This document shows positions 16,973 to 62,223 of a stretch of DNA of 64,000 nucleotides, in pieces. The stretch lies in sequence record PV467749.1; one strand, written 5' to 3'. The notes under the pieces were generated by a model. It ran no database searches. It was not told the DNA's origin and was given only the letters and a program-made list of their open reading frames with translations. Positions within the stretch are counted from its first letter, which is position 1. Every line of letters begins with the position of its first letter. The position numbers and the translations under genes are program-made. This DNA comes from a phage.

Positions 16973-17623
16973 TTACATATTATATAATGTGAATGCAGTC
17001 ACTTTACCAGTTGTTGTTAGTTCATTATAAAGATACTCCAAGATTCTCGCACACTCTAAGTATATCTCGATATCATCATGAATAAGTGAGTACTGAAATA
17101 GCTGTTCTTCAGGTAATTTGTATTGACTTCCTTTTAATGAATTGAGAATATCTTTCACATCATCAAGTACTGGGTAAAGTACGAAATCTTCATCATATTT
17201 TGAAGCAATAAATTCAAATCCACCACCATCAGTACTAGATATACCAATCAGTACTTTATCAATCAAGTTAATGTTTATATAACGGTTGTGATTTGGGTGA
17301 ATTGAAATCTCAAACATACGAGTACTGTTACAATCAACATCAATATACAAATATACATCATTGAATTTATAAGTTAAACAACCGTACTCAAGAAAATCAG
17401 AACAAATAATTGATGAGTTTTTTCTTGTCTCTGCGTAATGCATCTTGATATTCTTTTCACGCATAAGTAATTCGAACTTTGCACTAAACTTGCCACCAGC
17501 AAGATAGTTAGTATTAGGACGTTTGTAACTTGCAACTGGTCGGTGGGATGATGTAAAGTATTTTTTTGTGAATCGTTTCTGTTTAGTGAAATATTCTTGA
17601 TAGAACTTACTTCTTTTATTCAT
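16973..17623 (-). CDS. hypothetical protein, EE-x-FQ family member inserted in the array on the opposite strand
   Basis: 216 aa ORF; C-terminal PEEQLFQYSLIHDD motif shared with 10 other ORFs in the window. Confidence 0.75.
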   Translation of the reverse strand: MNKRSKFYQEYFTKQKRFTKKYFTSSHRPVASYKRPNTNYLAGGKFSAKFELLMREKNIKMHYAETRKNSSIICSDFLEYGCLTYKFNDVYLYIDVDCNSTRMFEISIHPNHNRYININLIDKVLIGISSTDGGGFEFIASKYDEDFVLYPVLDDVKDILNSLKGSQYKLPEEQLFQYSLIHDDIEIYLECARILEYLYNELTTTGKVTAFTLYNM

Positions 17624-17700
17624 GAGTACCTCAATTAAATCGCTGTAAAATTGTACATTATAAAATGATTAAATAAAGTATAACACAAGGAGATTTTATC
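17624..17700. promoter_or_regulatory. divergent promoter region
   Basis: The + side has gattaaataaagtataac + aaggag before ATG 17701. The minus side has ttttataat upstream of ATG 17623. Confidence 0.5.
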
Positions 17701-18825
17701 ATGTTACCTTTCGTATTGTTATTTGATTATGGGAACGAAAAACAAGAAAGTTCTTATGATGTTAGTGTATATGGAAACAATAACTACATTTTAAATAAAC
17801 AAACTGGAAACCTTTTTGCATCCGGTGCTGCGGCATTCATGGGTGATAACACAGTTAAGTATTATATTACCCAAATAGAATCAAATGTTCATAGCTGTGA
17901 GATAGGTTTCCTATCATCATGGATAATTAAGAAGGACAAAACTGTTTTCATTTTAGGAAACAAAAGCAGTATAGGATTAACTGGTTCGACAACATCATGG
18001 TTCGAAATTACAAATTTATTTTCTGCTGTTCCTGAAATATGGGACAACCTATTTGAATGTAAAGTTCAATTGGGATATAACTGTATACGTGTTATGACAC
18101 CACTAGGATCAATCTATGCGATTGGTACAAACACTTATGGTGCATTGGGTACTGGTACTACATCCTCATCAACTTCGTTCGTTAAAAGTGGTGCTGTGGA
18201 TGCTGTACGCATGGAATCAACAGAACGTTCAGTGTTCTATCAAAACAGTTCTGGACAATGGTTTGGATGTGGTGATAACACATATGGTATACTAGGTCTA
18301 GGAACTACCGCGAGTCGTGTAAACTCATACACCGCACCAGTATGGACTAATGCAGAAGCTGTTAGCTTCTCTAACCGTGGGATCATATACAGCCTCAATG
18401 GTACTCTATACTCATGTGGTGACAAAGTTAATGGTCAGCTAGGGGATGGATATACACAAAGCATAGACGCTGCCAGGAGCACACCATACACCATAGGAAC
18501 CGCATTCCAAATTGGTAAGGCAATAACATCAGCTACACAAGCATCAGCCAACGTATTCATTGGTAAAGATAATAAGTTCTATGGTACTGGTAGTATTGCT
18601 GCTGGTATAAATGGTAGTACTAGTGCTGCATTAAGTAAAGTTACTGCGTTATCAGCAGCACTACCACCTGACATTACATACAATGATATTATAACATTTA
18701 ATACAGGGACCGTAACTTTTATTCAAGCAAAAGGACAACTATATTATGTTGGTAGAAGAACTTACATAGATAATAGTTCAGACGTTACCACACAGTTCAG
18801 TGTAATTGGTGGCTTAGATAATTAA
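17701..18825 (+). CDS. RCC1-like repeat protein, array member 15/16 (last)
   Basis: MLPFVLLFDYGN; GTNTYGALGTGT, GDNTYGILGLGT, GDKVNGQLGDG. Confidence 0.85.
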   Translation: MLPFVLLFDYGNEKQESSYDVSVYGNNNYILNKQTGNLFASGAAAFMGDNTVKYYITQIESNVHSCEIGFLSSWIIKKDKTVFILGNKSSIGLTGSTTSWFEITNLFSAVPEIWDNLFECKVQLGYNCIRVMTPLGSIYAIGTNTYGALGTGTTSSSTSFVKSGAVDAVRMESTERSVFYQNSSGQWFGCGDNTYGILGLGTTASRVNSYTAPVWTNAEAVSFSNRGIIYSLNGTLYSCGDKVNGQLGDGYTQSIDAARSTPYTIGTAFQIGKAITSATQASANVFIGKDNKFYGTGSIAAGINGSTSAALSKVTALSAALPPDITYNDIITFNTGTVTFIQAKGQLYYVGRRTYIDNSSDVTTQFSVIGGLDN

Positions 18826-18830
18826 AATTA

Positions 18831-18855
18831 ATCCAGTACTATTATAGTACTGGAT
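18831..18855. terminator. bidirectional hairpin between convergent genes
   Basis: atccagtact-attat-agtactggat followed by T6. Confidence 0.7.
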
Positions 18856-18861
18856 TTTTTA

Positions 18862-19233
18862 TTATAACATACGTTTTTTACGAATAGTATTGTGGATATT
18901 TTTTAAGTAGTTCACACCTTTACACAACCCATAAAATACACCAGCACATACACCAAATGCAGGTATCATACATGCAAACATCGTTATCAATTCCCACATC
19001 TCCATGCCATCTTGATTCGGTCCAAGGTCAAAGATAACAACCGAAACCAAACCTGTGATACTTAGCATATAATATGCCATGAAGATAATAAAAGAAACAA
19101 TACCAACATCAGAGCGAACTGAATTTAGCATATTATATACTGGGGTTACACAGAAGTAATACAATAACCAAATCAAAGAACCTAAACTAAACACAATAAT
19201 AGTAATGATCGAAAATATTTCACGATAACTCAT
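18862..19233 (-). CDS. small multi-TM protein, family A member
   Basis: 123 aa, 3-4 hydrophobic segments, basic tail IRKKRML; first (3'-most) of 7 abutting paralogs. Confidence 0.7.
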   Translation of the reverse strand: MSYREIFSIITIIVFSLGSLIWLLYYFCVTPVYNMLNSVRSDVGIVSFIIFMAYYMLSITGLVSVVIFDLGPNQDGMEMWELITMFACMIPAFGVCAGVFYGLCKGVNYLKNIHNTIRKKRML

Positions 19234-20281: not shown

Positions 20282-20619
20282 TAGTACCTCGCATCAGGAA
20301 CTTTAGCACGTAATTTATGAACGACTGGGAACAACAACAAACTTACATATGCAATAGTTGAACCCCAATAGAATACTAATATAATTGGTTCACCATTGGA
20401 ACGGAACCCTCTACTAATCATTGAGTAGTGAATAATAGGCATGAACATCGCCATACCAAACCATGCGTGTAATTTTAATTGCAGCATGTTATCAGAGATG
20501 AATACTGAAATTGGTCGTTTGAAGAACCACATCAGAAAGTAGAATCCAGCACTAAGGATATAGTACATAGTACTAACTTTCATATACCACGGCAGTAAGT
20601 GTAAAAAATATTCCATCAT
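20281..20619 (-). CDS. small multi-TM protein, family A member
   Basis: 112 aa; WFFKRPISVF; tail LRAKVPDARY. Confidence 0.7.
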   Translation of the reverse strand: MMEYFLHLLPWYMKVSTMYYILSAGFYFLMWFFKRPISVFISDNMLQLKLHAWFGMAMFMPIIHYSMISRGFRSNGEPIILVFYWGSTIAYVSLLLFPVVHKLRAKVPDARY

Positions 20620-20963
20620 TCCTCCGGTATCTTGTTTCGAAGTTCAATCATAACACAACAAAGTTTAATGGTCAAGTAAAAAACTACACATATCATACCC
20701 AATGTACCGTAAACTGCGGAGAATGCTGGCAGTACCTTTCCTGTGAGTGTTGCTACAATACATGCTATCAATGTTGATGCAAACAACGATTGATTAATGA
20801 AAGAATTCATAAAATCTTCACCATTACGCTTATAGAATTGTCGTTTAAAATACCATCCTAGAAACATAACTACCCAAAATGTTACATAACCTGTTAGAAT
20901 AATCCCTGCAATTGAATGTGCAACAGAACTACTCTTTAAAAACTCAAGATAAGATTCAAACAT
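20616..20963 (-). CDS. small multi-TM protein, family A member
   Basis: 115 aa; WYFKRQFYKRNG; tail LRNKIPEE. Confidence 0.7.
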   Translation of the reverse strand: MFESYLEFLKSSSVAHSIAGIILTGYVTFWVVMFLGWYFKRQFYKRNGEDFMNSFINQSLFASTLIACIVATLTGKVLPAFSAVYGTLGMICVVFYLTIKLCCVMIELRNKIPEE

Positions 20964-21301
20964 TAGAAGTCCCCACGAATTTTTGCTCTACCATTAATGA
21001 TGAGATTAAACAAGTATATCAGCACCCAAATTAGTAATCCAAGGAATACAATATATTGTGATATTGAGTTCAACTGTGGATTAGCACAATAAATTAAGTG
21101 TGCGATAAGACCAACAATTGCAAACATACCTTGGATAATAGTGAAAAGAAGTAGTGAAATGTTTCCATCTGGATACAGTTTGAAAACGATTTTCTTTTTA
21201 AAATACCATAGTACTACAACTAGTGCATGATAAAAGAAAAAACCAAACAGATAAATCAAAGTAATACTAAGCATTGTATCTGAATTAAAAAACTCAAGCA
21301 T
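20963..21301 (-). CDS. small multi-TM protein, family A member
   Basis: 112 aa; WYFKKKIVFKLYPDG; tail GRAKIRGDF. Confidence 0.7.
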   Translation of the reverse strand: MLEFFNSDTMLSITLIYLFGFFFYHALVVVLWYFKKKIVFKLYPDGNISLLLFTIIQGMFAIVGLIAHLIYCANPQLNSISQYIVFLGLLIWVLIYLFNLIINGRAKIRGDF

Positions 21302-25020: not shown

Positions 25021-25365
25021 CTATCGATTTGGCATTTTATCTCGTAATCTAATGAGATAATCAACCACAGACCATGTTGAAATGAAAGTGATATAAGTAC
25101 CGAAGAATCCTACCAGAATAAAGGCAACAAGTGTACTCCCATTTGGATCTTCAGCTTTAATACCGATGATACCATCAAATACAGTGAAAAATGTAGACAT
25201 ACACGTTAAACAGATGTACATCACCAATAAGAATTCATGTTTCAATGATGGATATAAACGGTCAAAGAGTTTATAAAATTTAAAGTACAGTAGGAGTATA
25301 CCAACAAAGACATAGAAAGTAAACAGTGTTGTTATGATATATGATATTAAATTTAAATTATACAT
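25021..25365 (-). CDS. small multi-TM protein, family A member
   Basis: LYFKFYKLFDRLYPSLK; tail RLRDKMPNR; start moved to ATG 25365 (ggag SD). Confidence 0.7.
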   Translation of the reverse strand: MYNLNLISYIITTLFTFYVFVGILLLYFKFYKLFDRLYPSLKHEFLLVMYICLTCMSTFFTVFDGIIGIKAEDPNGSTLVAFILVGFFGTYITFISTWSVVDYLIRLRDKMPNR

Positions 25366-25366
25366 C

Positions 25367-25708
25367 TCAACGCTCCGGTAGATTATCACGTAATGTTTTG
25401 ATTCGATTATACAATTTCATTGCTACATTTCCAAATAAACCAAAACCCATTACTAAAATGTATGCGATGATCATAGTAATAATTACAATAGTACCTAGAC
25501 TGTAATGTACTGCACTGATACCCATTATTGTTTCTACAATGATGTGAGCAACAGAAATAATCAAAAGTACTACTACAATTGGATGATTTGGATACATTCG
25601 GTTAAACAATGTTTTGTACTTAAAGAAGTACAGTACTCCACCAAATAAGAAGTACACAATGTAGATTGATGCAACTGCATAAGCAAACGCATTAGTGTAA
25701 AAAATCAT
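25367..25708 (-). CDS. small multi-TM protein, family A member
   Basis: LYFFKYKTLFNRMYPNH; tail LRDNLPER. Confidence 0.7.
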   Translation of the reverse strand: MIFYTNAFAYAVASIYIVYFLFGGVLYFFKYKTLFNRMYPNHPIVVVLLIISVAHIIVETIMGISAVHYSLGTIVIITMIIAYILVMGFGLFGNVAMKLYNRIKTLRDNLPER

Positions 25709-25717
25709 TATCAATCC

Positions 25718-26056
25718 TTACTTTTCAGGGATTTTATTACGCCACTCATCGATGCGATGAAGCAGTTTAAAGAGCAAAAATATCGGAACAGTAGCTATCA
25801 TAGTAGCAATTGTTAGTAATGTCAACACCGATACGAGATTTAATTCGTCAGTACTATATCCACATACCAGTGCTTCAATTATCCCCCACGTACATACACT
25901 GAACATCAAAAATGAAATTGGTGCATCGTAGTATATGCGTTGATACAAGGTCGTGTATCGGAAGAATGCAATAATGTAACAAAACATGTAATACACCCAA
26001 ATTAACGATACTACATAAAATGATACCTTATTAATTAATTCAAAATGATGTTCCAT
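25718..26056 (-). CDS. small multi-TM protein, family A member
   Basis: AFFRYTTLYQRIYYDAP; tail WRNKIPEK. Confidence 0.7.
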   Translation of the reverse strand: MEHHFELINKVSFYVVSLIWVYYMFCYIIAFFRYTTLYQRIYYDAPISFLMFSVCTWGIIEALVCGYSTDELNLVSVLTLLTIATMIATVPIFLLFKLLHRIDEWRNKIPEK

Positions 26057-27516: not shown

Positions 27517-29028
27517 TTATTTTTTATCCTTTCCAACACCACGGTCGTACTCTTTGAATGAGTTATCAAGTGTAGTTAGTGCATACTCATATGCTTCTGG
27601 TGATTCAATGTCAACATCATCTGCACCATTTACTAAATCAGCCCAAGCCTTTTGAAGTTTACGAGCATTGTTACCAACATTATCTTTAATCCAACTAATA
27701 TTTTTGTTGATACTTTTACTATCAGCACCTGCTTTTTTACCAATCTCGGATATCCACATCATTAACTTTTGAAGTTCATGAATTGATTTATCAGTCATTT
27801 CAAGATGTTCTTCTTCCATACCGTCAGAATCAGATGAACCAACGTCAATTCCATGTTTAGCTAATAGTTTACCAAGTTCAAAGAATGCAGCTTCAGCAGG
27901 GAAGTCATAACCTTTGTCTTTGTAGTTATTCCATGCACTATCAAACTCGTCAACAAAACGGTTAGCATAATCTGGATTTTTAACTAATGCTTTATATACT
28001 GCCATTGCATGTTCAAAACCTTCTTTATCTGACCCAAACTCTTCCATCTCAGGACGATGAATATATCCATCCATATCAACGGTATCAGGTAGATCTTCTT
28101 GTTCAGGTTCTACATCTTTCTGTTCAACTGCACCTTCTTCATCTGCACGCTTTAGATAACCATCTGGTGTTACCTTCTCACCATGTTCTGCTTCATACTT
28201 TTTCATAGTGTTGAATGCAGCATCCATAGCTGTTACGAAGCGACTTTTCTCACCTTGTACATAAGATTTAAGTGCACTGTTAACTGCATCTGATACGAGC
28301 TTAACCTTATCGTCTTTACCTTCTAAACGGTTTTCAAGTTTAGCCAGTACATTCTTGATTTGCTGGGCATTAGCACGGTCTGCTTTACCAATACTATCAA
28401 AAGTTTTAAGAATACCATCAAGACTTGCTTCACCCTGTTCAGGTTCTTTCGAATCTTCTTTGTGTGTACCTTCAAGTGCACGCATGATAGTACTGAATAC
28501 TTCAGTGGGTTCAGTACTCTTATTACCTTTCATTGCATCAAGTACAGCTTGTGCTTTACCTTTGAGTTCTTCTTTAGGAACTGCCTGTAGTGCTTTGACA
28601 ATACCCTGAATCAACTGTGGTTTGTTAGCAAAGATCTTACCTAAGTTATCAGATAACTCTTTAACAGGGTTAGCTGCTTTAGGAGCTTCTGGTTTTGGTT
28701 CTTCTTTAGGAACTGCTTGTTCTTTCTCAGCACGTTCCATATCAGCAAGGCGTTGTTTCTGTGTTGCGTTAAGAAGACCTAATGAGTTAACATAACGTAG
28801 CTTTTCTAGCTCAGTCATGTTCTCAGTACTCTTAACTTCACCTGCTTCTGCGTTTGCCTTACCAGCTAAACCTGTCCCTTGATTACGTGAACCACGTGAC
28901 CCCTGTCCTGCTTGGTAGCTATTTTGACGACGATTGCGTTCACTCCATTTATCAGAGTGACCTGCCATGTTCCCGCCATTTTTATCAGTAAATTGACCTG
29001 GCATTTGATTTCTCTCCATAGATTTCAT
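27517..29028 (-). CDS. large acidic/K-E-rich hypothetical protein (503 aa)
   Basis: Longest ORF of the early block; segments LRYVNSLGLLNATQ and ...IVKALQAVPKEELKGKA are paralogous to ORF 29861-30259. Confidence 0.7.
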   Translation of the reverse strand: MKSMERNQMPGQFTDKNGGNMAGHSDKWSERNRRQNSYQAGQGSRGSRNQGTGLAGKANAEAGEVKSTENMTELEKLRYVNSLGLLNATQKQRLADMERAEKEQAVPKEEPKPEAPKAANPVKELSDNLGKIFANKPQLIQGIVKALQAVPKEELKGKAQAVLDAMKGNKSTEPTEVFSTIMRALEGTHKEDSKEPEQGEASLDGILKTFDSIGKADRANAQQIKNVLAKLENRLEGKDDKVKLVSDAVNSALKSYVQGEKSRFVTAMDAAFNTMKKYEAEHGEKVTPDGYLKRADEEGAVEQKDVEPEQEDLPDTVDMDGYIHRPEMEEFGSDKEGFEHAMAVYKALVKNPDYANRFVDEFDSAWNNYKDKGYDFPAEAAFFELGKLLAKHGIDVGSSDSDGMEEEHLEMTDKSIHELQKLMMWISEIGKKAGADSKSINKNISWIKDNVGNNARKLQKAWADLVNGADDVDIESPEAYEYALTTLDNSFKEYDRGVGKDKK

Positions 29029-29109: not shown

Positions 29110-29406
29110 TTAGTAGTTACAGTCAGCTTTCGCTGTGAATGTTTTACTTTCACCTCGTTGTGTGGTGATTCGTCCGAGTAAAGTAGTTTTGTCAATAGTC
29201 ATTGTAGTTAGTACTGGAACATTACCTTCAAAGTCAATAGCTTTGAAATTGTAGGTGGTTTCATTCTCCACTACACTTGGACCAAAGAGTTCATATGTGT
29301 TGATTTCAAGTGTGTCACCATCTGAACGCAACAGTGTGCAGTCCAGATTAGGAGTAGCCAGTACTGGGAAAGCCAAACACATCATCATTACAATAATTAA
29401 TTTCAT
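29110..29406 (-). CDS. secreted small protein (two-Cys family)
   Basis: Start moved to MKLIIVMMMCLAFPVLA (aggag SD); mature form ATPNLDC...KADCNY. Confidence 0.65.
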   Translation of the reverse strand: MKLIIVMMMCLAFPVLATPNLDCTLLRSDGDTLEINTYELFGPSVVENETTYNFKAIDFEGNVPVLTTMTIDKTTLLGRITTQRGESKTFTAKADCNY

Positions 29407-29407
29407 T

Positions 29408-29665
29408 TCACTTCTCCTGTTTTTTCTTAGGATCAACCAATGACCAAATGAAGAATCCGAGAATTACAAGTACCCACAGAATCATGATAAAGAAAGCAAA
29501 CAGTACAATAGTATTTGTCAAAAAGAAATACAATAGAATGTTCGACCCAATACTACATACAATCAATGCAGCTTCATGTTTAACAACACGAATGGCTGTA
29601 ATGAGTGCGGGAAGAAATCCGACAAATAACAGTACTAATGCATATAGTGATAATGTTTCAGCCAT
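29408..29665 (-). CDS. small membrane protein
   Basis: 85 aa, three hydrophobic segments. Confidence 0.6.
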   Translation of the reverse strand: MAETLSLYALVLLFVGFLPALITAIRVVKHEAALIVCSIGSNILLYFFLTNTIVLFAFFIMILWVLVILGFFIWSLVDPKKKQEK

Positions 29666-29847: not shown

Positions 29848-29868
29848 GGGCTGACTGAAGTCAACCCC
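29848..29868 (-). terminator. fused terminator/promoter module copy 5 (variant loop)
   Basis: gggctgactgaagtcaacccc; cgtataat on the minus strand downstream. Confidence 0.6.
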
Positions 29869-30259
29869 TTTTAATTATTTTTTTAAACTTATGTTTTTCG
29901 CCTTCAATAGAGTTCACGATGTCATCATGAATCTTGCGAAGGTTATGAGTTTTCTTTAGTGCTTCATGTAGTGCACGGAATGCTGCGTGTACTGTTGCCT
30001 TGAAGTGCTCTTTAGGAGTCACTTTAAGTTTCTCAATGATATCACGTACATAAATTGGATGATCTTCAAATACACGATTCAATTCATGGCCTAGTGATTC
30101 TAGACTGAAAGCTTTTTCACGTGAAGGACGATCATGTGCAAGACTTTGGTCAGGCTTTAGTAGACCTAGTGAATCAAGATACTTATGCTTATGTGCATTA
30201 TCAATTCCAGAAATATCCACATCATGCGATGGATCTTTCTTATTCCATTTATCAACCAT
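29861..30259 (-). CDS. hypothetical protein, short paralog of ORF 27517-29028
   Basis: KYLDSLGLLKPDQ and IIEKLKVTPKEHFKATV align to the 503-aa protein; aaggag SD. Confidence 0.65.
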   Translation of the reverse strand: MVDKWNKKDPSHDVDISGIDNAHKHKYLDSLGLLKPDQSLAHDRPSREKAFSLESLGHELNRVFEDHPIYVRDIIEKLKVTPKEHFKATVHAAFRALHEALKKTHNLRKIHDDIVNSIEGEKHKFKKIIKRG

Positions 30260-30827: not shown

Positions 30828-31400
30828 TTATAAATCACGAACGACATTCATTAAACACAATTTGGGCTTTATCGCATTCAAAACCCATATGCATTCTTTG
30901 TAAGTTGCTATTATAGCATCTAAATGCTCAGTTACAATGCTTTCTTGAAAATATTCTTCTTCATTGAGCTTTGCTAAATTAGTTACATCACATGTAGGTA
31001 CTATAGGTCTGGATTGTACACCCATTCCATTATTGATATTGGTAAAATGTAAAAAATTGTACTTCACCACACCTTTATCTACATTTATGATACATGACAA
31101 ATGTTCCAACTCAGTTAGTTCTGTATTACAAGTGACATTAATGAATCCAGCATTATAGGCTCTATAATCATCTACTGATATCTCAAAATCATTACGTTCA
31201 AATATAAGTGAAATGAGTTTGTCTTGTGGTTTAACCTTCTGAAATTTTACCGAATTTACGTATGATACGTTAATCTTAGATGAAATTATCTTTTTACTAA
31301 GTGCAGTTAATTCTTCTTTAGCCTTAAAAGTTAAAGTTATAGGTCTAAATCTAGAACTTTTGTTCTTCTTTGATACTTTGAACTTACCTTTTCTATTCAT
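30828..31400 (-). CDS. hypothetical protein, EE-x-FQ family
   Basis: NEEEYFQESIV motif near the C-terminus. Confidence 0.65.
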   Translation of the reverse strand: MNRKGKFKVSKKNKSSRFRPITLTFKAKEELTALSKKIISSKINVSYVNSVKFQKVKPQDKLISLIFERNDFEISVDDYRAYNAGFINVTCNTELTELEHLSCIINVDKGVVKYNFLHFTNINNGMGVQSRPIVPTCDVTNLAKLNEEEYFQESIVTEHLDAIIATYKECIWVLNAIKPKLCLMNVVRDL

Positions 31401-33651: not shown

Positions 33652-34002
33652 TTAGTCCTCATATTTACACAAGCCACCGAATGTTGCCTGTTTTGCTGCC
33701 TTACGCATCATCACAAGTTTAACATACTGTTCACCATTACTTTCTTCATATACATCAACTTGAAGAAATGCAAGCATATTGGGATCAGTATCATTCGAGT
33801 ACTGCGTAAAACTAATGTCACCTACAGTATGTTCTTTAACAAAATTATACACTTCACCATCGATATAAACGATAGTATGGTCATCGCTATCACCTTGGTA
33901 AATGTGTTTAATATCACCTTCAGTACAGACTAGTCCAGGTAATGGTTCTGCATAAGACATACCACATATAATCATACAAACAAAAAACAAAATTACTTTC
34001 AT
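33652..34002 (-). CDS. secreted small protein (two-Cys family)
   Basis: MKVILFFVCMIICGMSYA; GLVC...GGLCKYED; IVYIDGEVYNFVKE aligns to ORF 34393. Confidence 0.65.
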   Translation of the reverse strand: MKVILFFVCMIICGMSYAEPLPGLVCTEGDIKHIYQGDSDDHTIVYIDGEVYNFVKEHTVGDISFTQYSNDTDPNMLAFLQVDVYEESNGEQYVKLVMMRKAAKQATFGGLCKYED

Positions 34003-34392: not shown

Positions 34393-34758
34393 TTAAAGTT
34401 CACAATGAATATTCAATTTATCAATATCCTGATCTCGTTTGTTCGACGAATCTTGATAAATGACTATGTAAATATCCCCATCCTTTGTCTTGGGGTCCAC
34501 TATCAATATTACATTTGCTATTATACCAGCATCTGATTTATATGTCGATACCTTTTTATTCCCAATCAAACTCTCGGCCCTGAAACGGTAAACCTCATTA
34601 TCTACGACAATATTGTTTCCATTTTGTGGGTCATTAGAAAGTACATGCCATGTTCCATCGTTTCCCATACAATCAAGGTAAGCAGGTACGGCTGTACTGA
34701 ACCTTGAATAAAGCATGAATACTACAAACACCATTATCATTCTTATATATTTTTTCAT
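34393..34758 (-). CDS. secreted small protein (two-Cys family)
   Basis: Start moved to MKKYIRMIMVFVVFML (gaggt SD); YLDC...NIHCEL. Confidence 0.65.
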   Translation of the reverse strand: MKKYIRMIMVFVVFMLYSRFSTAVPAYLDCMGNDGTWHVLSNDPQNGNNIVVDNEVYRFRAESLIGNKKVSTYKSDAGIIANVILIVDPKTKDGDIYIVIYQDSSNKRDQDIDKLNIHCEL

Positions 34759-34836
34759 TATAACCTCTAACGAGCAATACTTCTGCACATATTATTTGTA
34801 CAGAAGTATTTAATACTATTAGAGACTTTTTGAACG

Positions 34837-36580: not shown

Positions 36581-36802
36581 TCATTCTCCATCATATTCAG
36601 TGAGTATTACACTATGTACGGTTTCAATATAGCGTTGTGTTTTTGATGTGTTGTACTTAGTTACTTCATCAAACAATTTAAATAGTGCATGTGTTGGACT
36701 TAATGCACGAACAAATACATCAATCTTCTGTACTTCTTTCTTATAACCACGTACATTATTAAACTCAGATACATGCTCATACACAATGTAGTAACGATTC
36801 AT
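36581..36802 (-). CDS. hypothetical protein
   Basis: 73 aa. Confidence 0.55.
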   Translation of the reverse strand: MNRYYIVYEHVSEFNNVRGYKKEVQKIDVFVRALSPTHALFKLFDEVTKYNTSKTQRYIETVHSVILTEYDGE

Positions 36803-50651: not shown

Positions 50652-51098
50652 TTAGTTATATGAAGTGAATAGATCGATACTTTCATCATCTACACTGATT
50701 AATTTACCAGTTGAACTAACAAACACAATATTACCACCAGGGGTGAGTTGAACACGCTGATTTACTGAATATTGATCACTAAGGTTATAATTAGCCCATT
50801 CAACTACATAACGCTGTTCAACACCATTAGTATCATAAAGATAAACGTGTGTAACATCACGCATTTTTAAACGTTCTAGCAGTGTTGAGTTATCCATGAA
50901 ATCAGATGGTGTGTCACTACGTAATGCGATACCAAACTCACCAATACCAGTACTAATAGTTAGACCGTTGGAAAAACGACTACAAAGAGTTTTCTCGTCA
51001 GCAATATGCATCCATAAAACATTCTTTACATCAATCTCAATGAACTCACAATTTTCAAACACTAACCCTACTTTAGAAACCTTACCATTAAATTGCAT
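50652..51098 (-). CDS. hypothetical protein
   Basis: Several possible starts (ttg atg atg) after ggag. Confidence 0.6.
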   Translation of the reverse strand: MQFNGKVSKVGLVFENCEFIEIDVKNVLWMHIADEKTLCSRFSNGLTISTGIGEFGIALRSDTPSDFMDNSTLLERLKMRDVTHVYLYDTNGVEQRYVVEWANYNLSDQYSVNQRVQLTPGGNIVFVSSTGKLISVDDESIDLFTSYN

Positions 51099-51495
51099 CA
51101 TCAACTCCTATTTTTTTGTATTTTAAAATAAAATCTCTTGCTGCTTTCATAAGTTTAAATGGAATAGCTAATTCTTTGACAGTACTATCCATGAAATGTT
51201 CTTCTTCTGTATCATAGAATGTTGACGTGTAGTGTTCACAATCATCAATTCTATCCCAGATACTTGGCGTGTCAGCAATAACAGTGATTTGTTTATCAGT
51301 TTTGGTATGTGCCGCATGGACCGTAAATCCAATATCACCCGTTTCAACACGAATTACAAACGATTTATCAGATATATAGCTCAACCAGCAATCTTTACCG
51401 AAGTATACAGTACTGTGTTTCTTCTCAAATGTATTACTGTTTTCAAGTACATCAATGACAATATCAACCTCATTATCACTTAAAATTTTATTCAT
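51088..51495 (-). CDS. hypothetical protein
   Basis: Start moved to MNKILSDNE (gaggaag SD). Confidence 0.6.
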   Translation of the reverse strand: MNKILSDNEVDIVIDVLENSNTFEKKHSTVYFGKDCWLSYISDKSFVIRVETGDIGFTVHAAHTKTDKQITVIADTPSIWDRIDDCEHYTSTFYDTEEEHFMDSTVKELAIPFKLMKAARDFILKYKKIGVDDAI

Positions 51496-51496
51496 A

Positions 51497-51901
51497 TCAT
51501 CTTCCTCGTAGGTTTCTGGCAATTTCAAAGATACCATTTATGTTGTCAACTGACAATCCACACATATCGTATAATGTAGATAGCTGAAAGAACATATCTT
51601 CATCTATAGTAACATGTTCAATCTGCATTTGCAAGAGCACTTCACCAAGAAAATGATCGTATGTTTGTATCTTAAAAGAATCATAATATATATCAATGAA
51701 GAATTTTGGCACACCATAGAACGAAACGACAAGTACAATGTTGTCAGAAGCTTCACATGGAACACTCAATGTATTTTTAAATGAACGGTATTCAAATGTG
51801 TACGGGTCTACGTCACATGTATAGAATGAACTACACCCTTCAGAAAATATTACACCATTTTCAATTAGCATAGATAGTGTATGTGGTGGAATTTTCAACA
51901 T
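51497..51901 (-). CDS. hypothetical protein, EE-x-FQ family
   Basis: DEDMFFQLSTLYD. Confidence 0.65.
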   Translation of the reverse strand: MLKIPPHTLSMLIENGVIFSEGCSSFYTCDVDPYTFEYRSFKNTLSVPCEASDNIVLVVSFYGVPKFFIDIYYDSFKIQTYDHFLGEVLLQMQIEHVTIDEDMFFQLSTLYDMCGLSVDNINGIFEIARNLRGR

Positions 51902-51909
51902 TTAAATGT

Positions 51910-52326
51910 TTATCCTTTATTTTGTTGTACGTTTTTATGTAGTACACCACAAATATAAAATAATTTACTTAGATTAGAATAACTTATGTTAGTTAGATCG
52001 TATACGAAATTTAGTTGCATGTACATATCTTCAGTTAAATCATACAACGATTCATCCACATCAATTACGATTTTGTGCGTGGTATCAATCTCTACTTTAT
52101 TAGGCCACATATCAATAACATAATCATTACCATGTTTTTCAGATATGGAAATGAACACATTATCGCTTTGTTCTAAAAACTCCATGTATCCGTTAAGAAA
52201 TGATCCAGTTATTATCTCATATTCACCAGAATAATACGTTGTTCTGGACTCAAATGCATTAAAAAATATAAAACGATATGTTTGGTTGATATACTCATCC
52301 ATTAAACTAATAACTTCTTTATTCAT
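51910..52326 (-). CDS. hypothetical protein, EE-x-FQ family (diverged)
   Basis: TEDMYMQLNFVYD. Start moved to MNKEVISL because the 5' extension reads through a terminator hairpin (aggctgattca-taa-tgaatcggcct + T6). Confidence 0.6.
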   Translation of the reverse strand: MNKEVISLMDEYINQTYRFIFFNAFESRTTYYSGEYEIITGSFLNGYMEFLEQSDNVFISISEKHGNDYVIDMWPNKVEIDTTHKIVIDVDESLYDLTEDMYMQLNFVYDLTNISYSNLSKLFYICGVLHKNVQQNKG

Positions 52327-52566
52327 TACATTAATCCCCACAAGAAAAAAGGCCGATTCATTATGAATCAGCCTTAAGTATAACACAGTAGAAGTAAAAA
52401 TGTCAACTTCTAAAATACAGTATCAAAGAGGAATAAAAAAGATACTGTTAGAGGGTAACGAATATAATGAACCATGAGGGTGATATCATTATACTTTAAA
52501 AGAGTGATAGCTTCTAGACAAAAGGAGGAATTCAGTACCGACTAGAAGCTATCCGGTTAAACGATT

Positions 52567-53055: not shown

Positions 53056-53415
53056 TTATGGATTAATCAAACGACACATACCAACTATAACATTTATCTC
53101 TTCTAATGTCAAGTCACCAATGTCATTTATCATTGAGTACTGGAATAATGACTCTTCTGTGTACTCAAAATCATGTACTGCTATAAAAAATGGCTCCTTA
53201 GAAACATCTAATGTTATCTTAGCCATTGTACTATATAAATCAAATTGATACAAAATATTAGGAGAAGTATATGCTATGTATATATTATTAGATTCTGATG
53301 GGTGTACCAGTGTGAATACATCATAACATAATATTTTTATGTTAGGATCATCAAAATTACCAGTATAAAGATTCTTACGAACATCTTGCATTATACGAGT
53401 TATTAAACTAGTCAT
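53056..53415 (-). CDS. hypothetical protein, EE-x-FQ family
   Basis: TEESLFQYSMINDIGDLTLEEI. Confidence 0.65.
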   Translation of the reverse strand: MTSLITRIMQDVRKNLYTGNFDDPNIKILCYDVFTLVHPSESNNIYIAYTSPNILYQFDLYSTMAKITLDVSKEPFFIAVHDFEYTEESLFQYSMINDIGDLTLEEINVIVGMCRLINP

Positions 53416-53824
53416 TAAACGGATTTGTAACCTCTTCTGGAATCAATCTTTTAACTTTAAGGATAGCACTAATGTCCTCAAATGTCAATCCATTTAGATC
53501 GTTTACGAGACAGTACTGAAAGAATTTTTCTTCAGTATCAATATCGTCAAAATTCAATTCAATCCTAGTGTCATAATAATCACTATTTACATTAGCAATT
53601 CTGATTTTAACTCGTTCAAAATACACATCAAATGAATAAAAATGATTATTGATTTCATAACCAAGAAAAATATTAAAACATTTACTCAAATCAGTGGTTT
53701 CGTTCAAATCGTCATCATAGCAAAAAACTCTAACTTCACCAATATCTTCTAATTGTACATCATGCAGTGACCATGCGTTGTTTTTTAATACGTAGTTCAC
53801 CATTTTAACAATGTTGTATGTCAT
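53408..53824 (-). CDS. hypothetical protein, EE-x-FQ family
   Basis: TEEKFFQYCLVNDLNGLTFEDI. Confidence 0.65.
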   Translation of the reverse strand: MTYNIVKMVNYVLKNNAWSLHDVQLEDIGEVRVFCYDDDLNETTDLSKCFNIFLGYEINNHFYSFDVYFERVKIRIANVNSDYYDTRIELNFDDIDTEEKFFQYCLVNDLNGLTFEDISAILKVKRLIPEEVTNPFND

Positions 53825-54236: not shown

Positions 54237-54301
54237 ATAGTTCTCCATATAGTATGGAGTATTTATTTTCAAGAAAAATGTTATTTCTAAGAATATATTT
54301 G

Positions 54302-54372
54302 TGGTCAATATTAGAATCGAACTAATGACTCAGACTTACAAGATCCGTGTTATACCATTTAACTAATCAACC
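54302..54372 (-). tRNA. tRNA-Thr (UGU)
   Basis: Hand-folded 71-nt cloverleaf: GGTTGAT/ATTGACC acceptor, GTTA/TAAC D stem, CGGAT-CTTGTAA-GTCTG, ATTAG-TTCGATT-CTAAT. Confidence 0.85.
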
Positions 54373-54376
54373 AGAT

Positions 54377-54424
<48 letters not shown>

Positions 54425-54425
54425 C

Positions 54426-54756
<331 letters not shown>

Positions 54757-54775
54757 GCATACTCGAAGTACCTCT

Positions 54776-54813
<38 letters not shown>

Positions 54814-54832
54814 AACTGAATACTTACATCCC

Positions 54833-54867
<35 letters not shown>

Positions 54868-54912
54868 ATAGGCACACACGGAACTGCTTTATAAGCTACT
54901 GAATCGGGAATC

Positions 54913-55180
<268 letters not shown>

Positions 55181-55189
55181 TAATACCCG

Positions 55190-55591
55190 CTAGTAGTTTA
55201 AGTCTGCGGCGTTGAAGACACCAAGTGAAGTCTTACCACGTAGTTTAGGTGAAATGACATATTTTGTCAATTTCTTTTTACCGTACCAGTGATTGAATTC
55301 GTCTTCAGTAACATGTGGGTTCTGGAAATCGTATTCACGTTTCTTATGAAGTTTTTTAGCTTGTTCTGCAATCTTAGTTCGTTGATCTTCTGGAATGTCG
55401 AATGTATTGTTACGTTTGCACCATTCGTGCACTAATGCTTCCAGAAGGAACTGTTCAGTTTCTTTGACTAGAGTGATTTTAGTCAAGCCTTTTTCGATGT
55501 TCATATAATCATCGACATATCCATTCCAAATAACAATCTCTGGATTGCCGTCAATCTCTTGAAGCATTTTGATCAAGTCATTCTTTTTCAT
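55190..55591 (-). CDS. hypothetical protein
   Basis: 133 aa. Confidence 0.6.
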   Translation of the reverse strand: MKKNDLIKMLQEIDGNPEIVIWNGYVDDYMNIEKGLTKITLVKETEQFLLEALVHEWCKRNNTFDIPEDQRTKIAEQAKKLHKKREYDFQNPHVTEDEFNHWYGKKKLTKYVISPKLRGKTSLGVFNAADLNY

Positions 55592-55599
55592 TTAAATTC

Positions 55600-55857
<258 letters not shown>

Positions 55858-55866
55858 ATTTGTTTC

Positions 55867-56052
55867 CTATGAAATGAATGTAGCGTCAATTCCCATTATA
55901 AATGCAAATATACCAAACAATATCAACCCGATTGGTACAAAGATCATAGATCTATTTCCATGTTTCGATAAAAATCGCTCAACTGTAATTAAACGTATTG
56001 ATATCGGAACCATTATGATAATATACAATATTGAAAGAATTAAAAGTTGCAT
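55867..56052 (-). CDS. small membrane protein
   Basis: 61 aa, two TM segments. Confidence 0.55.
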   Translation of the reverse strand: MQLLILSILYIIIMVPISIRLITVERFLSKHGNRSMIFVPIGLILFGIFAFIMGIDATFIS

Positions 56053-56080
56053 TTTAATTTCCTATTGTAATTTCGTTTTG

Positions 56081-56153
56081 CGACTCTGGAGGAACTCGAA
56101 TCCCCAACCAATTAATTAACAGTTAATCGCACCACCTATTGTGCTACAGAGTC
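56081..56153 (-). tRNA. tRNA-Asn (GUU)
   Basis: 73-nt cloverleaf: GACTCTG/CAGAGTC, GCAC/GTGC, ATTAA-CTGTTAA-TTAAT, GGGGA-TTCGAGT-TCCTC. Confidence 0.85.
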
Positions 56154-56161
56154 ATAATTAT

Positions 56162-56368
56162 TTATAAGCCATGTCTTTTCAAAAATCTAGCAAACACATT
56201 TTTGGAAGCACCATAACTTTCATATATACTAACTTTTTTCTCACCATTATTCAAACGTTTTTTGATATCTTCTATGTTATCTTCTAAACGTTTTACGTTT
56301 GCAAATTTCTTAGATGGTATATTATTTTTGGTTCTATAATTCAGTACTGAACCTGAACTAATATTCAT
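56162..56368 (-). CDS. small basic protein, possible HTH DNA-binding
   Basis: 68 aa; VSIYESYGASKNVFARFLKRHGL helix-turn-helix-like; sits between tRNA genes. Confidence 0.45.
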   Translation of the reverse strand: MNISSGSVLNYRTKNNIPSKKFANVKRLEDNIEDIKKRLNNGEKKVSIYESYGASKNVFARFLKRHGL

Positions 56369-56386
56369 TATTTTATTTCAAAGTTT

Positions 56387-56691
56387 GTGAGCCATCTGTG
56401 AGTCGAACACAGTACCTAACGATTCGTATAATCTATAGTTTTCACTATAGTACGGACTATATCATCATCCCATAGGGATGCCGGACGCTAATGATGTATT
56501 ACACAGTAAGATCGTACTGTACCATCTAGTCTCTGCACCTTCCCAATACGCTTATTGGGCTTGGCTCAGGATTGTCATCACCATTACGTGTTAAGATTTC
56601 CCTGAATTCATCCAGTTTTTCAATCACCATTACTGATGAAAGTCACCATTGTCGATGAGTCGTTTGCTCTAACCACCGTGAGCTAATGGCC
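56387..56691 (-). tRNA. tRNA (anticodon CAU; Met or Ile2) interrupted by a group I intron
   Basis: 5' exon 56654-56691 GGGCCATTAGCTCACGGTGGTTAGAGCAAACGACTCAT. 3' exon 56387-56423 AATCGTTAGGTACTGTGTTCGACTCACAGATGGCTCA. The joined 75-nt sequence folds as a canonical cloverleaf. Confidence 0.85.
56424..56653 (-). ncRNA. group I intron (IC3-like, no ORF) in the tRNA anticodon loop
   Basis: 230 nt inserted after CAU. The 5' exon ends in U and the intron ends in G. Core elements GGTGCAGAGACTAGATGG (R) and GATGATATAGTCCG (S), plus GAGCCAAGC, as in bacterial tRNA introns. Confidence 0.8.
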
Positions 56692-56699
56692 CGATTTAG

Positions 56700-56936
<237 letters not shown>

Positions 56937-56961
56937 AAATTAATTATATCAGTACTTAATC

Positions 56962-57339
<378 letters not shown>

Positions 57340-57701
57340 ATCACCAACTTTAATTAAAAAAATGGATGGTGACGCTTTTAAACGCCGCTGTTAATTCAGC
57401 TTTATAACCACCCGTTTTAACTTGCCTTTCGGCTACCTTGACGTGGGGCGTACAGGCTACTAAAAGCAACTACTGTAAACATATTTCCACGCCTTACCCT
57501 TTTAAATAAAAGTCCATCCGGTTTTCCAGTTTGGTGAAGGATAGTCACCTCTAGTTTAAACCTGCTAGTCAAGTAATAATTGCCTATCGTCCAATTATCA
57601 AACCCGTCTAGGTTAACATTCACCACTTCCTAGAGTACCAGAGATCTTGTTCTGGATTGCATCGACGTAGCTTACACCATATACGTCTGATTGTGGAATT
57701 C
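57340..57701. other. non-coding GC-enriched region (candidate structured RNA)
   Basis: About 360 nt between two family genes. The only ORF (57417-57626) has an atypical composition. GNRA hairpin agcc-gaaa-ggca; ends accatccattttttt in the minus sense. Confidence 0.35.
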
Positions 57702-57726
57702 ATTATATCAGTACTGAACTATTTAG

Positions 57727-57730
<4 letters not shown>
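57702..57730 (-). promoter_or_regulatory. sigma70-type promoter
   Basis: Minus sense TTGACT-aaatagttcagtactga-TATAAT; near-identical copy at 58124-58151. Confidence 0.7.
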
Positions 57731-58152
<422 letters not shown>

Positions 58153-58160
58153 CTTTTTAT

Positions 58161-58321
<161 letters not shown>

Positions 58322-58325
<4 letters not shown>

Positions 58326-58482
58326 ATTCGTACCAGTAGTTCAATTAAGTACATTTCATATGCTGGATCGTTGATAAGTTTATCATACAGATGTGGCTCT
58401 GAAATGAATTCCCAATGATACTTTAGCCATTTACCGATACCCGAATATCTAAAATTAATATCATTCATCCATTCTTCATGTG

Positions 58483-58486
<4 letters not shown>
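58322..58486 (-). CDS. 54-aa MTHEEW-family protein
   Basis: MTHEEWMNDINFRYSGIGKWLKYHWEFISEPHLYDKLINDPAYEMYLIELLVRI; ATGA overlaps at both ends. Confidence 0.6.
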
Positions 58487-58647
<161 letters not shown>

Positions 58648-58649
58648 GG

Positions 58650-58750
<101 letters not shown>

Positions 58751-58754
58751 ATTT

Positions 58755-58870
<116 letters not shown>

Positions 58871-59621: not shown

Positions 59622-59970
<349 letters not shown>

Positions 59971-59980
59971 ACTATATCTT

Positions 59981-60151
59981 CTATTTCCTAATTGCAAGCT
60001 CATAGATGAACCAGTGATTACTATCCTCATCAAGTACAAATGATTTGAAAAGTTGTTTATCTTTTAACACATCATAATGACCTTGGCGTATACCAAAACC
60101 AAAAGGATTATGTTTAAATTTTAGTTCATCTAACCATTCTTTGTGTGTCAT
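59981..60151 (-). CDS. 56-aa MTHEEW-family protein (below cutoff)
   Basis: MTHKEWLDELKFKHNPFGFGIRQGHYDVLKDKQLFKSFVLDEDSNHWFIYELAIRK; ATGA overlap with the upstream stop. Confidence 0.55.
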   Translation of the reverse strand: MTHKEWLDELKFKHNPFGFGIRQGHYDVLKDKQLFKSFVLDEDSNHWFIYELAIRK

Positions 60152-60333
60152 CTTATTTTGTCCATGACTGCTATACTAAAATATGTACCAAAATCATCAC
60201 AATTGATGATGTTGTTATAGTACTCGATTGGGTTACGCAATGATATATACAATTCAAGCTTAAAATAGTATATATCTGCTGCATTTATATTATAGTGTAG
60301 ATTAAACCACTCATCAAATGTCTTAGGCTGCAT
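60148..60333 (-). CDS. hypothetical small protein (possibly a distant MTHEEW relative)
   Basis: MQPKTFDEWFNLHYN... Confidence 0.5.
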   Translation of the reverse strand: MQPKTFDEWFNLHYNINAADIYYFKLELYISLRNPIEYYNNIINCDDFGTYFSIAVMDKIR

Positions 60334-60727
60334 TATATTTATCTTTATAAAAATCCATGATTTTAGTCAACAGTACTGCAATCGTATAATCTAAATCAGG
60401 ATAAAGTAAATTGTACTGAAATTCTTCCTCTACACTATAGTTTGTGGTGCAGTACTGATAGTCTTTATAACCAATGGAAAAATGGTTAGGATACAATGTA
60501 CAACGAAAACGATATGCTTCATCTGTCATATAATCATTGTATTCAACACAGAAGTATAGTGATTTGGCATTTAATTCAATAAGCTCAACGAAACCATCAG
60601 GTAATGAATGGTTATAAATTACTGAATCTTCATTAAACCATTCATAGTATTTTTCCAAAAAATCACTAATGGATACATCCAGACTTTGTATAGGTGGAGT
60701 AATGACAATTTGAACTTCGTTATTCAT
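60323..60727 (-). CDS. hypothetical protein, EE-x-FQ family
   Basis: SVEEEFQYNLLYPD. Confidence 0.65.
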   Translation of the reverse strand: MNNEVQIVITPPIQSLDVSISDFLEKYYEWFNEDSVIYNHSLPDGFVELIELNAKSLYFCVEYNDYMTDEAYRFRCTLYPNHFSIGYKDYQYCTTNYSVEEEFQYNLLYPDLDYTIAVLLTKIMDFYKDKYNAA

Positions 60728-61212
60728 TTCGACCCCTTACTATATTTCACGTATGGGCTATCATACAGATCATAACTTTTTTGTGCACGTTCTTTTCGGC
60801 GTTCATACATGATTCTATCATACTCTTTAGCTTTCTGATTTGCTTCATTATACAATTTTAAAATTAGCAAAAATGCATCAAGATCGGGATAGTTTGCTGG
60901 ATTGATAGTACTCAGCATAAATCGTTCTTCTTCAGTTCTAGCTAAGTCAAATTCATACTTAATAGTTTTATACCCACTCCATTTATATATATGCGTTACT
61001 TTATTAGTAAGTACATTATATTCAACGAAGTCAGTACTACCATCAAGTACACGAGTAATCTTAATAGATGTACCAATGACAATCTGTACAGAACTCATTT
61101 CTGAAGTTTTAAAGTAAAAAATGTTATTACGGCGAAGATTAACTTCTCGATCTCCAATGCGAACATGCTTAATAACTTCCATTAATGGTTCTGGGACACC
61201 ACGAATCGGCAT
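60724..61212 (-). CDS. hypothetical protein, EE-x-FQ family
   Basis: RTEEERFMLSTINP; start moved to MPIRGVP (gagga SD). Confidence 0.6.
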   Translation of the reverse strand: MPIRGVPEPLMEVIKHVRIGDREVNLRRNNIFYFKTSEMSSVQIVIGTSIKITRVLDGSTDFVEYNVLTNKVTHIYKWSGYKTIKYEFDLARTEEERFMLSTINPANYPDLDAFLLILKLYNEANQKAKEYDRIMYERRKERAQKSYDLYDSPYVKYSKGSK

Positions 61213-61213
61213 G

Positions 61214-61783
61214 TTAGTATTCCTCAACAACGGTTAGGAATCTATCCCAACCAGTATAAGTGAAATGATCAAAGTATTGTTTTTCGCCACCTACCATATA
61301 TACTTCAATTAAACCGTGGTCGAAATAATTTTTTGGTTTTTTAACTTCAGTTACAATTGCTTTATGTCTGAAACCATTATAATCAGTATATGTTACAATA
61401 TCGTGAATTTTGATATTATCAGGTGTATAAGTGTTGGCGTTATTATTGAGAACATGAAGATGATGGTCTACGATTTCTTTACTGGAAATTACCCCAAATA
61501 TGTTACCAGAAAATACTTTATTACCATTACAGGTCAATGCCCAGCCATCACCAACTTCAATAGATTCAAATACATAATGTGTGCAAATTTTAGATACATC
61601 TGACGTATCCCAGTAATCACCATCAAGATTGGTGAATTTATAAACAGTTTTGAGTTTTTCGCCATCAAATGAAAGCAATGATACTCCGATAACAACCGTT
61701 CCGTCTTTAAGAATAATATTAAATTTATTATTTGTATTAAAGTATGCTTCTGACTCAGATGAGTTGAATTTAATAAAGTTCAT
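61214..61783 (-). CDS. hypothetical protein
   Basis: 189 aa. Confidence 0.65.
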   Translation of the reverse strand: MNFIKFNSSESEAYFNTNNKFNIILKDGTVVIGVSLLSFDGEKLKTVYKFTNLDGDYWDTSDVSKICTHYVFESIEVGDGWALTCNGNKVFSGNIFGVISSKEIVDHHLHVLNNNANTYTPDNIKIHDIVTYTDYNGFRHKAIVTEVKKPKNYFDHGLIEVYMVGGEKQYFDHFTYTGWDRFLTVVEEY

Positions 61784-61830
61784 ATGTTCTCCTTAGTAAG
61801 TCATAGTATTATATCAGAGTTTCATTGCAC

Positions 61831-62223
61831 TTACCAGCATGTTTTCATAACTTCTGTGATGTAAATCATTTTATCTTTTAGTTCATAAGGGATGCAAATT
61901 TCACCTGGGCTTAACGTTGTGTTCTTTTGAAACTCATCCTCTTCGGAATCAGCCAGGTAAAATGGGTGCGTCACAAAGTTATCATCAACTGGACGATTAT
62001 GTGGTTTCATTAATGCATCATGATTGACAAAATAATAAGCATCAATATCAGGACGGAAATACAAACAATCAACCTTAATGCACGGGTGTAACCATAAGGA
62101 CAAAGAATATGTTATTTGGTTACCAATTTGTCTTGGACCAGATGCAATTGTATTGATGTTATTTTTATCTTGTACCATTTCATAAATGAAATCTATCATT
62201 TTACGTAGTTCAGATTCAGTCAT
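61831..62223 (-). CDS. hypothetical protein, EE-x-FQ family
   Basis: DSEEDEFQKNTTLSP. Confidence 0.65.
   Translation of the reverse strand: MTESELRKMIDFIYEMVQDKNNINTIASGPRQIGNQITYSLSLWLHPCIKVDCLYFRPDIDAYYFVNHDALMKPHNRPVDDNFVTHPFYLADSEEDEFQKNTTLSPGEICIPYELKDKMIYITEVMKTCW

Follow-up and report, generated by a model that had tools for sequence, protein, structure and literature searches.

The closest described counterparts of the genes considered here are the expansions of short, early open reading frames (ORFs) in Rak2-like jumbo phages. In RaK2, ~10% of the gene products are related to each other as paralogs (PMC3622015), and in CBB an equivalent block of short ORFs, with RpoD-like promoters, a sigma factor, and tRNA genes, was inferred to be early and suspected of a part in host takeover (PMC5259590). 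We analyzed a 64,000-nucleotide stretch of the phage sequence record PV467749.1 (hereafter the window, with positions counted from its first nucleotide), and describe within it a family of small acidic proteins that carry a conserved motif toward the C-terminus. The family shares both its phage group and its promoter-rich compartment with the early-ORF expansions of RaK2, GAP32, CBB, 121Q, and PBECO4. The family is new and large but of this familiar kind, lineage-specific to jumbo phages, and not a new kind of system; no description of the family, its motif, or its fold was found in the literature searched. A second comparison concerns function. Phage inhibitors of host nucleases and defense systems (Ocr, ArdA, Arn, and the barstar- and colicin-immunity-like inhibitors) are small, acidic, non-virion, and early, as the family also appears to be (early in its case from promoters). 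They show no detected similarity to it in sequence or fold; the analogy is one of possible way of working and not of membership.

The window, with a G+C content of 35%, matches Asteriusvirus (the PBECO4/121Q-like E. coli jumbo phages), with 98% identity to CMSTMSU and ~90% identity to PBECO4 over 50–62.5 kb. From ~16.9 kb to the window end nearly all genes are short minus-strand ORFs, and these include every member of the family. We refer to each member by the lower coordinate of its ORF.

Thirteen window proteins with a homologous C-terminal module

A sequence-only reading of the window had proposed an eleven-member paralog family marked by an acidic EE-x-(F/Y)(F/Q) element. All 11 ORFs exist where they were placed, on the minus strand, with products of 119–216 residues that each contain the quoted peptide, and all 11 belong to the family; the count, however, was too low, as 36799–37314 and 51088–51537 had been missed and the window holds 13 copies (Table 1). 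Every one of the 13 has the motif (T/S)EExx(F)(Q/M)x(S/N/C/R) in a single alignment register, starting 34–70 residues before the C-terminus. The start lies at 34–46 residues in 11 of the 13, at 55 in 36799, and at 70 in 60724, rather than at the 25–40 residues first given. MAFFT places the motifs in one column block in which E, F, and Q are nearly invariant, in agreement with the proposal that the element is homologous.

The core domains are acidic, with a pI of 4.2–4.8 and a net charge of −8 to −14, compared with a background median pI of 6.6. Three members join this acidic core to a strongly basic extension, which is N-terminal in 16973 (MNKRSKF...) and 30828 (MNRKGKF...) and C-terminal in 60724; a similar basic tail is also present in the metagenomic relative P0124. 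These extensions may serve in nucleic-acid contact or in self-inhibition. For two members the sequence points to a start codon downstream of the one that opens the ORF. The true start of 51910 is most likely ATG 52326 (138 residues), because a terminator-like hairpin (52375–52349) and a promoter matching 11 of 12 consensus positions (52406–52377) lie inside the GTG-started ORF, and because the relative P0091 begins MNKEV. Similarly, ATG 61212 is the most likely start of 60724 (162 residues), because its homologs, P0093 included, begin at the internal ATG and not at the TTG.

Table 1 Family members and other features of the window
Feature	Coordinates	Strand	Product	Motif (coordinates)	Remarks
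Member 16973	16973–17623	−	216 aa; basic N-terminal extension + core	PEEQLFQYSLI (17081–17113)	left-out E 1.2e-5
Member 30828	30828–31400	−	190 aa; basic N-terminal extension	NEEEYFQESIV (30933–30965)	left-out E 4e-4
Member 36799	36799–37314	−	171 aa	TEESVFQQSLI (36934–36966)	left-out E 1e-3; relatives P0092, P0127
Member 51088	51088–51537	−	149 aa	TEEEHFMDSTV (51178–51210)	left-out E 7e-8; hhalign 83.7% to 57727
Member 51497	51497–51901	−	134 aa	DEDMFFQLSTL (51572–51604)	pairwise, hhalign, left-out recovery
Member 51910	51910–52386	−	158 aa (ORF from GTG 52386)	TEDMYMQLNFV (52003–52035)	left-out recovery; relative P0091
Member 53056	53056–53415	−	119 aa	TEESLFQYSMI (53128–53160)	target of structure model 1; motif in predicted helix 2 (residues 87–96); pairwise E 8e-13 to 53408
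Member 53408	53408–53824	−	138 aa	TEEKFFQYCLV (53504–53536)	adjoins tRNA-Thr
Member 56962	56962–57339	−	125 aa	DEADEFQKRTV (57049–57081)	26 nt from tRNA-Ser(gct); left-out E 3e-4
Member 57727	57727–58092	−	121 aa	TEEEYFQTSTV (57802–57834)	target of structure model 2; motif in predicted helix 2 (residues 88–97); left-out E 1e-7
Member 60323	60323–60727	−	134 aa	SVEEEFQYNLL (60404–60436)	left-out E 2e-5
Member 60724	60724–61230	−	168 aa (ORF from TTG 61230); basic C-terminal extension	TEEERFMLSTI (60904–60936)	left-out E 1e-4
Member 61831	61831–62223	−	130 aa	SEEDEFQKNTT (61915–61947)	most divergent; left-out E 4e-3; 66.9% to 56962
Array of 17 paralogous ORFs	25–18825	+	mostly ~300–450 aa, some fragmented		RCC1-like; PBECO4 label 'regulator of chromosome condensation'
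Four tRNA genes (Thr, Asn, Ser, Ser)	54301–58844	−			ten family members interleaved with or closely flanking them
Phage sigma-factor gene	41594–42559				from synteny with PBECO4, 121Q, and A4 annotations
Mini-family of four ORFs	58161–58647; 59981–60151	−	~54 aa each		three in tandem adjoining tRNA-Ser(tga); pairwise E down to 4e-26

Acidic patches might be expected to arise by chance in the small ORFs of an AT-rich genome, and a loose regular expression for the motif is indeed unspecific: across the 253 ORFs of 50 or more residues in the six frames it matches 12, where 1000 residue shuffles give 3.1 on average and 9 at most, and it is therefore weak evidence when taken alone. The strict core EExxFQxS, however, occurs in 5 of the 253 ORFs against 0.012 expected, and the scan turned up neither a plus-strand nor a shadow ORF in which the motif was correctly placed. 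Given this enrichment, the single register, the conservation of the motif across orthologs and genera, and the recovery of left-out subfamilies described below, we reject chance resemblance, to which we attach a negligible probability; the motifs are not chance acidic patches at non-homologous positions.

Within the window, pairwise searches link three pairs only (53056/53408, E ~1e-12; 51497/51910, ~1e-6; 51497/53408, ~5e-4), and an iterative model built from four mutually significant paralogs does not pull in the rest of the family. The comparison set was made up of the window and the syntenic regions of 121Q, PBECO4, and A4, with 451 coding ORFs in all. The motif is kept in every ortholog of these three phages, even at overall identities of 27–44%, and A4 has additional family copies. 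When ortholog-group profiles were compared with hhalign, E<5e-4 was reached in 11 of 78 family pairs and in 0 of 793 family/non-family pairs, with matches that are mostly short (12–35 columns) and centered on the motif. A family model run over the 451 coding ORFs returns 52 members at E<1e-6, and the next match, at E=0.05, is an A4 ORF that itself carries DEDAHFQESLV. With each subfamily left out in turn, all 15 are recovered at E values from 3e-10 to 4e-3, each ahead of every motif-lacking ORF (E ≥0.016 for those outside the family); the only better-scoring 'non-member' is A4 7206–7709, with DEDAHFQESLV.

The motif-centered hhalign matches would also be expected if the common element were a short linear motif, convergent or spread by recombination onto unrelated scaffolds, that might act as a docking site for a common partner. 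Masking lends this idea some support. Once the 12 columns of the motif are hidden, recovery falls to 5 of 15 subfamilies (16973, 51910, 51497, 53408, and one A4 copy), the other 10 being lost, and in profile–profile comparisons of three enlarged clusters (A, 53056-like; B, 57727-like; C, metagenomic) the match of A to B, at E 1.5e-8 unmasked, disappears altogether. On the other hand, the unmasked cluster matches extend well past the motif and align 39–60 columns in register, a span that runs in the predicted fold from the last part of the sheet to helix 3 inclusive and takes in strand 5 for A and C. The matches of A to C (1.9e-13) and of B to C (2.4e-12) also persist in register after masking, at 1e-3 and 7e-4, respectively, where the best of 122 controls reaches 0.013. 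The members have their length, acidity, and motif position from the C-terminus in common, and two models from disjoint alignments share a predicted topology in which the motif belongs to a confident helix and not to a disordered linker. We consider a linear motif on unrelated scaffolds unlikely. The in-register cluster matches therefore make the homology of the C-terminal helix–loop–helix module, ~40 residues long, firm at the level of sequence, while sequence evidence for homology of the N-terminal two-thirds is weak and detectable for some subfamilies only.

Predicted fold and position of the motif

Two of the 13 members were modeled with AlphaFold2. Model 1 (target 53056, built from a 48-sequence family alignment) has a predicted local distance difference test score (pLDDT) of 88.2 and a predicted template modeling score (pTM) of 0.77; its elements are helix 4–18, strands 26–32, 44–51, 54–61, 64–69, and 76–79, and helices 87–96 and 104–114. 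Model 2 (target 57727) was built from cluster-B sequences only, none of them common to cluster A, and scores similarly (pLDDT 87.6, pTM 0.78), with helix 3–14, strands 19–23, 27–36, 44–53, 58–67, and 77–83, and helices 88–97 and 104–120. The order of elements (one helix, five strands, two helices) is identical in both. Each member would accordingly be one small acidic alpha/beta domain of ~115–150 residues, made of an N-terminal helix, a five-stranded antiparallel sheet, and a C-terminal helix–loop–helix. The C-terminal hairpin appears to be the only part under strong sequence constraint, whereas helix 1 and the sheet would have diverged almost past recognition.

In both models, helix 2 begins directly after the T of the motif and spans EExxFQxSxx, and the pLDDT of the motif block is 81–94. 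The family consensus, (T/S)-E-E-x-(Y/F)-F-Q-x-S-(T/L)-(I/V)-x-D, is thus predicted to cap helix 2 at its N-terminus and to form its first turns. Since the helix starts right after T, this residue as N-cap and the third E of the consensus are predicted to form a capping box; a second cap, (S/T)x(E)(E/D), would start helix 3 after the loop. These models agree with the sequence-only reading, which had described a helix-like tail behind the motif.

A fold search of BFVD with both models returned only uncharacterized proteins of Rak2-like jumbo phages (UB, CBB, GAP32, RaK2, fHe-Yen9-03/04, and pEa_SNUABM_47), one CBB protein being common to the two. The PDB gave no convincing match for the family. 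Among named folds there is a likeness to p32/MAM33/gC1qBP (PF02330), which has in common with the family strong acidity and the arrangement predicted here of an N-terminal helix, an antiparallel sheet, and two C-terminal helices. It differs in having seven strands instead of the predicted five, and the family does not match PF02330 or, at E<=1, any other Pfam entry beyond noise; the likeness is one of topology class and not of membership.

Searched against PDB sequences, the family profile matches only the site TENLYFQGS in a His-tag for cleavage by tobacco etch virus (TEV) protease. The motif might itself be a processing site for a TEV-type (3C-like) protease, cleaved ~35 residues from the C-terminus. 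Proteases of this type follow the rule E-x-x-Y-x-Q|S/G. The family consensus tEEeYFQxS satisfies the E-x-x-Y-x-Q part of the potyvirus NIa site ENLYFQ|S, EEEYFQ-x-S fits the rule, and several members read (T/N)EEEYFQ(E/T)S. Cleavage, however, needs an extended and accessible chain, whereas the motif is predicted at the confidence given above to lie in a packed helix. In addition, P1' is variable with S at P2' instead, and many sequences replace the Y at P3 with F, L, E, or H. The annotations of ~200 kb of related sequence, taken from parts of genomes, include no Gln-specific protease; the annotated phage head protease is T4 gp21-like, and head proteases of that type cut after Glu. A processing site appears extremely unlikely to us, and the likeness to the TEV site, seen for example at 57802–57834 and 30933–30965, is probably coincidental. 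It may still matter at the bench, as TEV protease might nick recombinant members purified with TEV-cleavable tags if the motif helix unfolds.

Distribution and genomic setting

A 13-sequence core-domain profile, searched exhaustively with HMMER through 1.84 billion representative proteins, returned 48 representatives at E<=1e-3, of which ~30 are new proteins of 85–214 residues, mostly metagenomic. These distant relatives carry (T/S)EEE(Y/F)FQxS(T/L)(I/V)xD, in sequences such as STEEEYFQLSTIHE... or LTEEEFFQQSLIHDLYDITYSDI. A word-indexed protein search with family alignments returned nearly only Asteriusvirus orthologs of a few subfamilies; by a local check all subfamilies should have scored, and this search therefore under-collected candidates. 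Translated nucleotide searches (tblastn) with distant members reach only Asteriusvirus, GAP32, and two 348-kb Salmonella phages. As far as these searches reach, the family is confined to Rak2-like jumbo phages, namely Asteriusvirus, Mimasvirus, and their metagenomic relatives.

PBECO4 has 10 further members (gp411, gp413-414, gp419-424, and gp426) in 8.6 kb just past the position of the window's right end, which together with the 13 copies in the window gives at least 23 per genome; the ten form a tight group, and the window therefore cuts off the largest cluster of the family. In PBECO4 the ten extra members (218001–226600) adjoin the DNA methyltransferase gene gp416. At least 11 tandem members occur on a 20-kb metagenomic contig of similar synteny, with a sigma factor downstream, and at least 7 are interleaved with tRNA genes in the tRNA-rich region of the Cronobacter phage GAP32 (Mimasvirus).

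Clustering of the members at the tRNA genes, already seen in the sequence-only reading, is clear in the window: the median distance to a tRNA gene is 1.9 kb for members and 18.8 kb for other ORFs, and of the 22 ORFs that have 80 or more residues and lie within 4 kb of a tRNA gene, 10 are members. Because tandem members are not independent, the p-value of this clustering is too favorable. This proximity may be mere shared residence in an early block. Member 16973 had been described as a copy antisense inside the RCC1 array, and it does lie on the opposite strand between two array genes (15722–16939 and 17701–18825), but it overlaps neither.

The block has the promoters expected of genes read by the host polymerase. 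The minus strand has 27 sites that match a sigma-70 promoter at 11 or more of 12 consensus positions and the plus strand has none, against 3.8 expected for both strands; the 27 are spread over 16772–63738, with perfect 12/12 sites at 59670, 59526, and 54687. An 11/12 sigma-70-like promoter (58151–58124) lies directly upstream of 57727, and another lies directly upstream of 51910. A sigma-70 promoter (56971–56943) is also found directly upstream of tRNA-Ser(gct). Judged by these promoters, the family is probably expressed early.

Promoters of this type, rather than late promoters, also speak against the members being internal or ejected head proteins, with the motif as a packaging signal. Jumbo phages do carry families of paralogous packaged and injected proteins, such as gp92-97/162/163 of PhiKZ; phAPEC6, a sister phage, has an inner body; and some genes neighboring the family are annotated as virion structural. 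The proteome of the phAPEC6 virion, in contrast, comprises 62 proteins by mass spectrometry, none of them from gp080-gp114 (PMC7247149 Table 1). Nine family counterparts could be mapped in phAPEC6 (gp083c, 084c, 087c, 088c, 092c, 093c, 102c, 103c, and 105c, a mapping that leaves out the counterparts of 16973, 30828, and 36799), and none of the nine is among the virion proteins. Members in 121Q and PBECO4 are likewise not among the 'virion structural' annotations. We regard a role in the virion as very unlikely.

Candidate functions

The sequence-only reading found no function it could recognize for this paralog family, and our searches support that interpretation as they confirm the underlying observation. 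Scans against Pfam, NCBIfam, and PADLOC give only noise, the members are scattered over ~25 separate PHROGs groups that are all of 'unknown function', and no catalytic signature was found in the family. In the absence of a catalytic signature or a known relative we therefore favor diversified stoichiometric binders. The sigma-70 block, together with the absence of the counterparts from sister-phage virions, makes an intracellular action at an early stage of infection the most likely one.

The members form one divergent, uncharacterized family with, by prediction, a single acidic alpha/beta domain, and we hypothesize that its products serve as early, stoichiometric binders in host takeover or counter-defense; taken as a whole, we judge this reading somewhat more probable than not. 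The genes would be transcribed by host RNA polymerase with sigma-70, in the short-ORF block that also holds the tRNA genes and the phage sigma factor. The conserved hairpin could be the folding core of the scaffold or a shared interaction surface, and the variable sheet and loops would allow different paralogs to bind and neutralize different host proteins, stoichiometrically and not catalytically.

Several observations weigh against this proposal. No sequence or fold match to a known anti-defense, immunity, or DNA-mimic protein was found in PADLOC or the PDB. Because the masked comparisons recover 5 of 15 subfamilies and leave clusters A and B unlinked, common descent of the N-terminal part rests, for most members, on predicted topology, and the sameness of the two models was judged by the order of their elements and not by superposition. 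The near-invariant E-E and Q exceed what a helix cap needs and hint at a specific ligand or partner. No Asteriusvirus transcriptome or direct expression data were found in the literature searched. Finally, the orthologs do not evolve faster than neighboring early genes (Mann–Whitney p=0.69), which leaves the family without an arms-race signature of its own.

In a narrower version of the binder idea, the members would be an array of acidic inhibitors, diversified in the manner of barstar or immunity proteins, that act on host nucleases, notably on the anticodon nucleases that target tRNA, and on other defense effectors that cleave nucleic acids. Inhibitors of the immunity type are known as diversified tandem arrays. 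The interleaving with tRNA genes in both Asteriusvirus and Mimasvirus would then constitute a two-pronged module that replaces cleaved tRNAs and inhibits the enzymes that cleave them, and in helix 2 the face formed by the invariant E-E...Q would imitate a phosphate backbone or block a basic active site. We see this as an improbable specialization.

Whatever the members do, ~4% of the genes in a widespread group of jumbo phages of E. coli, Salmonella, and Cronobacter belong to a family that databases split into ~25 unrelated-looking 'hypothetical' groups. Uniting these groups provides a defined motif, a confident predicted fold without a solved relative, and a clear promoter-rich, tRNA-linked setting, so that two dozen anonymous ORFs in each genome become a single tractable target. 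If the proteins are host-takeover or counter-defense binders, they would represent a large natural library of inhibitors on one scaffold; if they are not, the family is a phage paralog expansion of the ordinary sort, though an unusually large one.

Other paralogous genes share the window with the family. In phAPEC6, several proteins named 'DNA condensation protein' (gp003-010, gp549, and gp551), which may be counterparts of the RCC1-like array, are found in the virion by mass spectrometry. Copies of the tandem ~54-residue mini-family beside tRNA-Ser(tga) are annotated as 165-nt genes in 121Q and phAPEC6. The minus-strand block also holds smaller paralog groups at 20616–21301; at 25021–26056; at 27517–29028 and 29861–30259; and at 29110–29436, 33652–34002, and 34393–34788. 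One paralog pair, with products of 503 and 132 residues, corresponds to 'virion structural protein' genes in 121Q and PBECO4.

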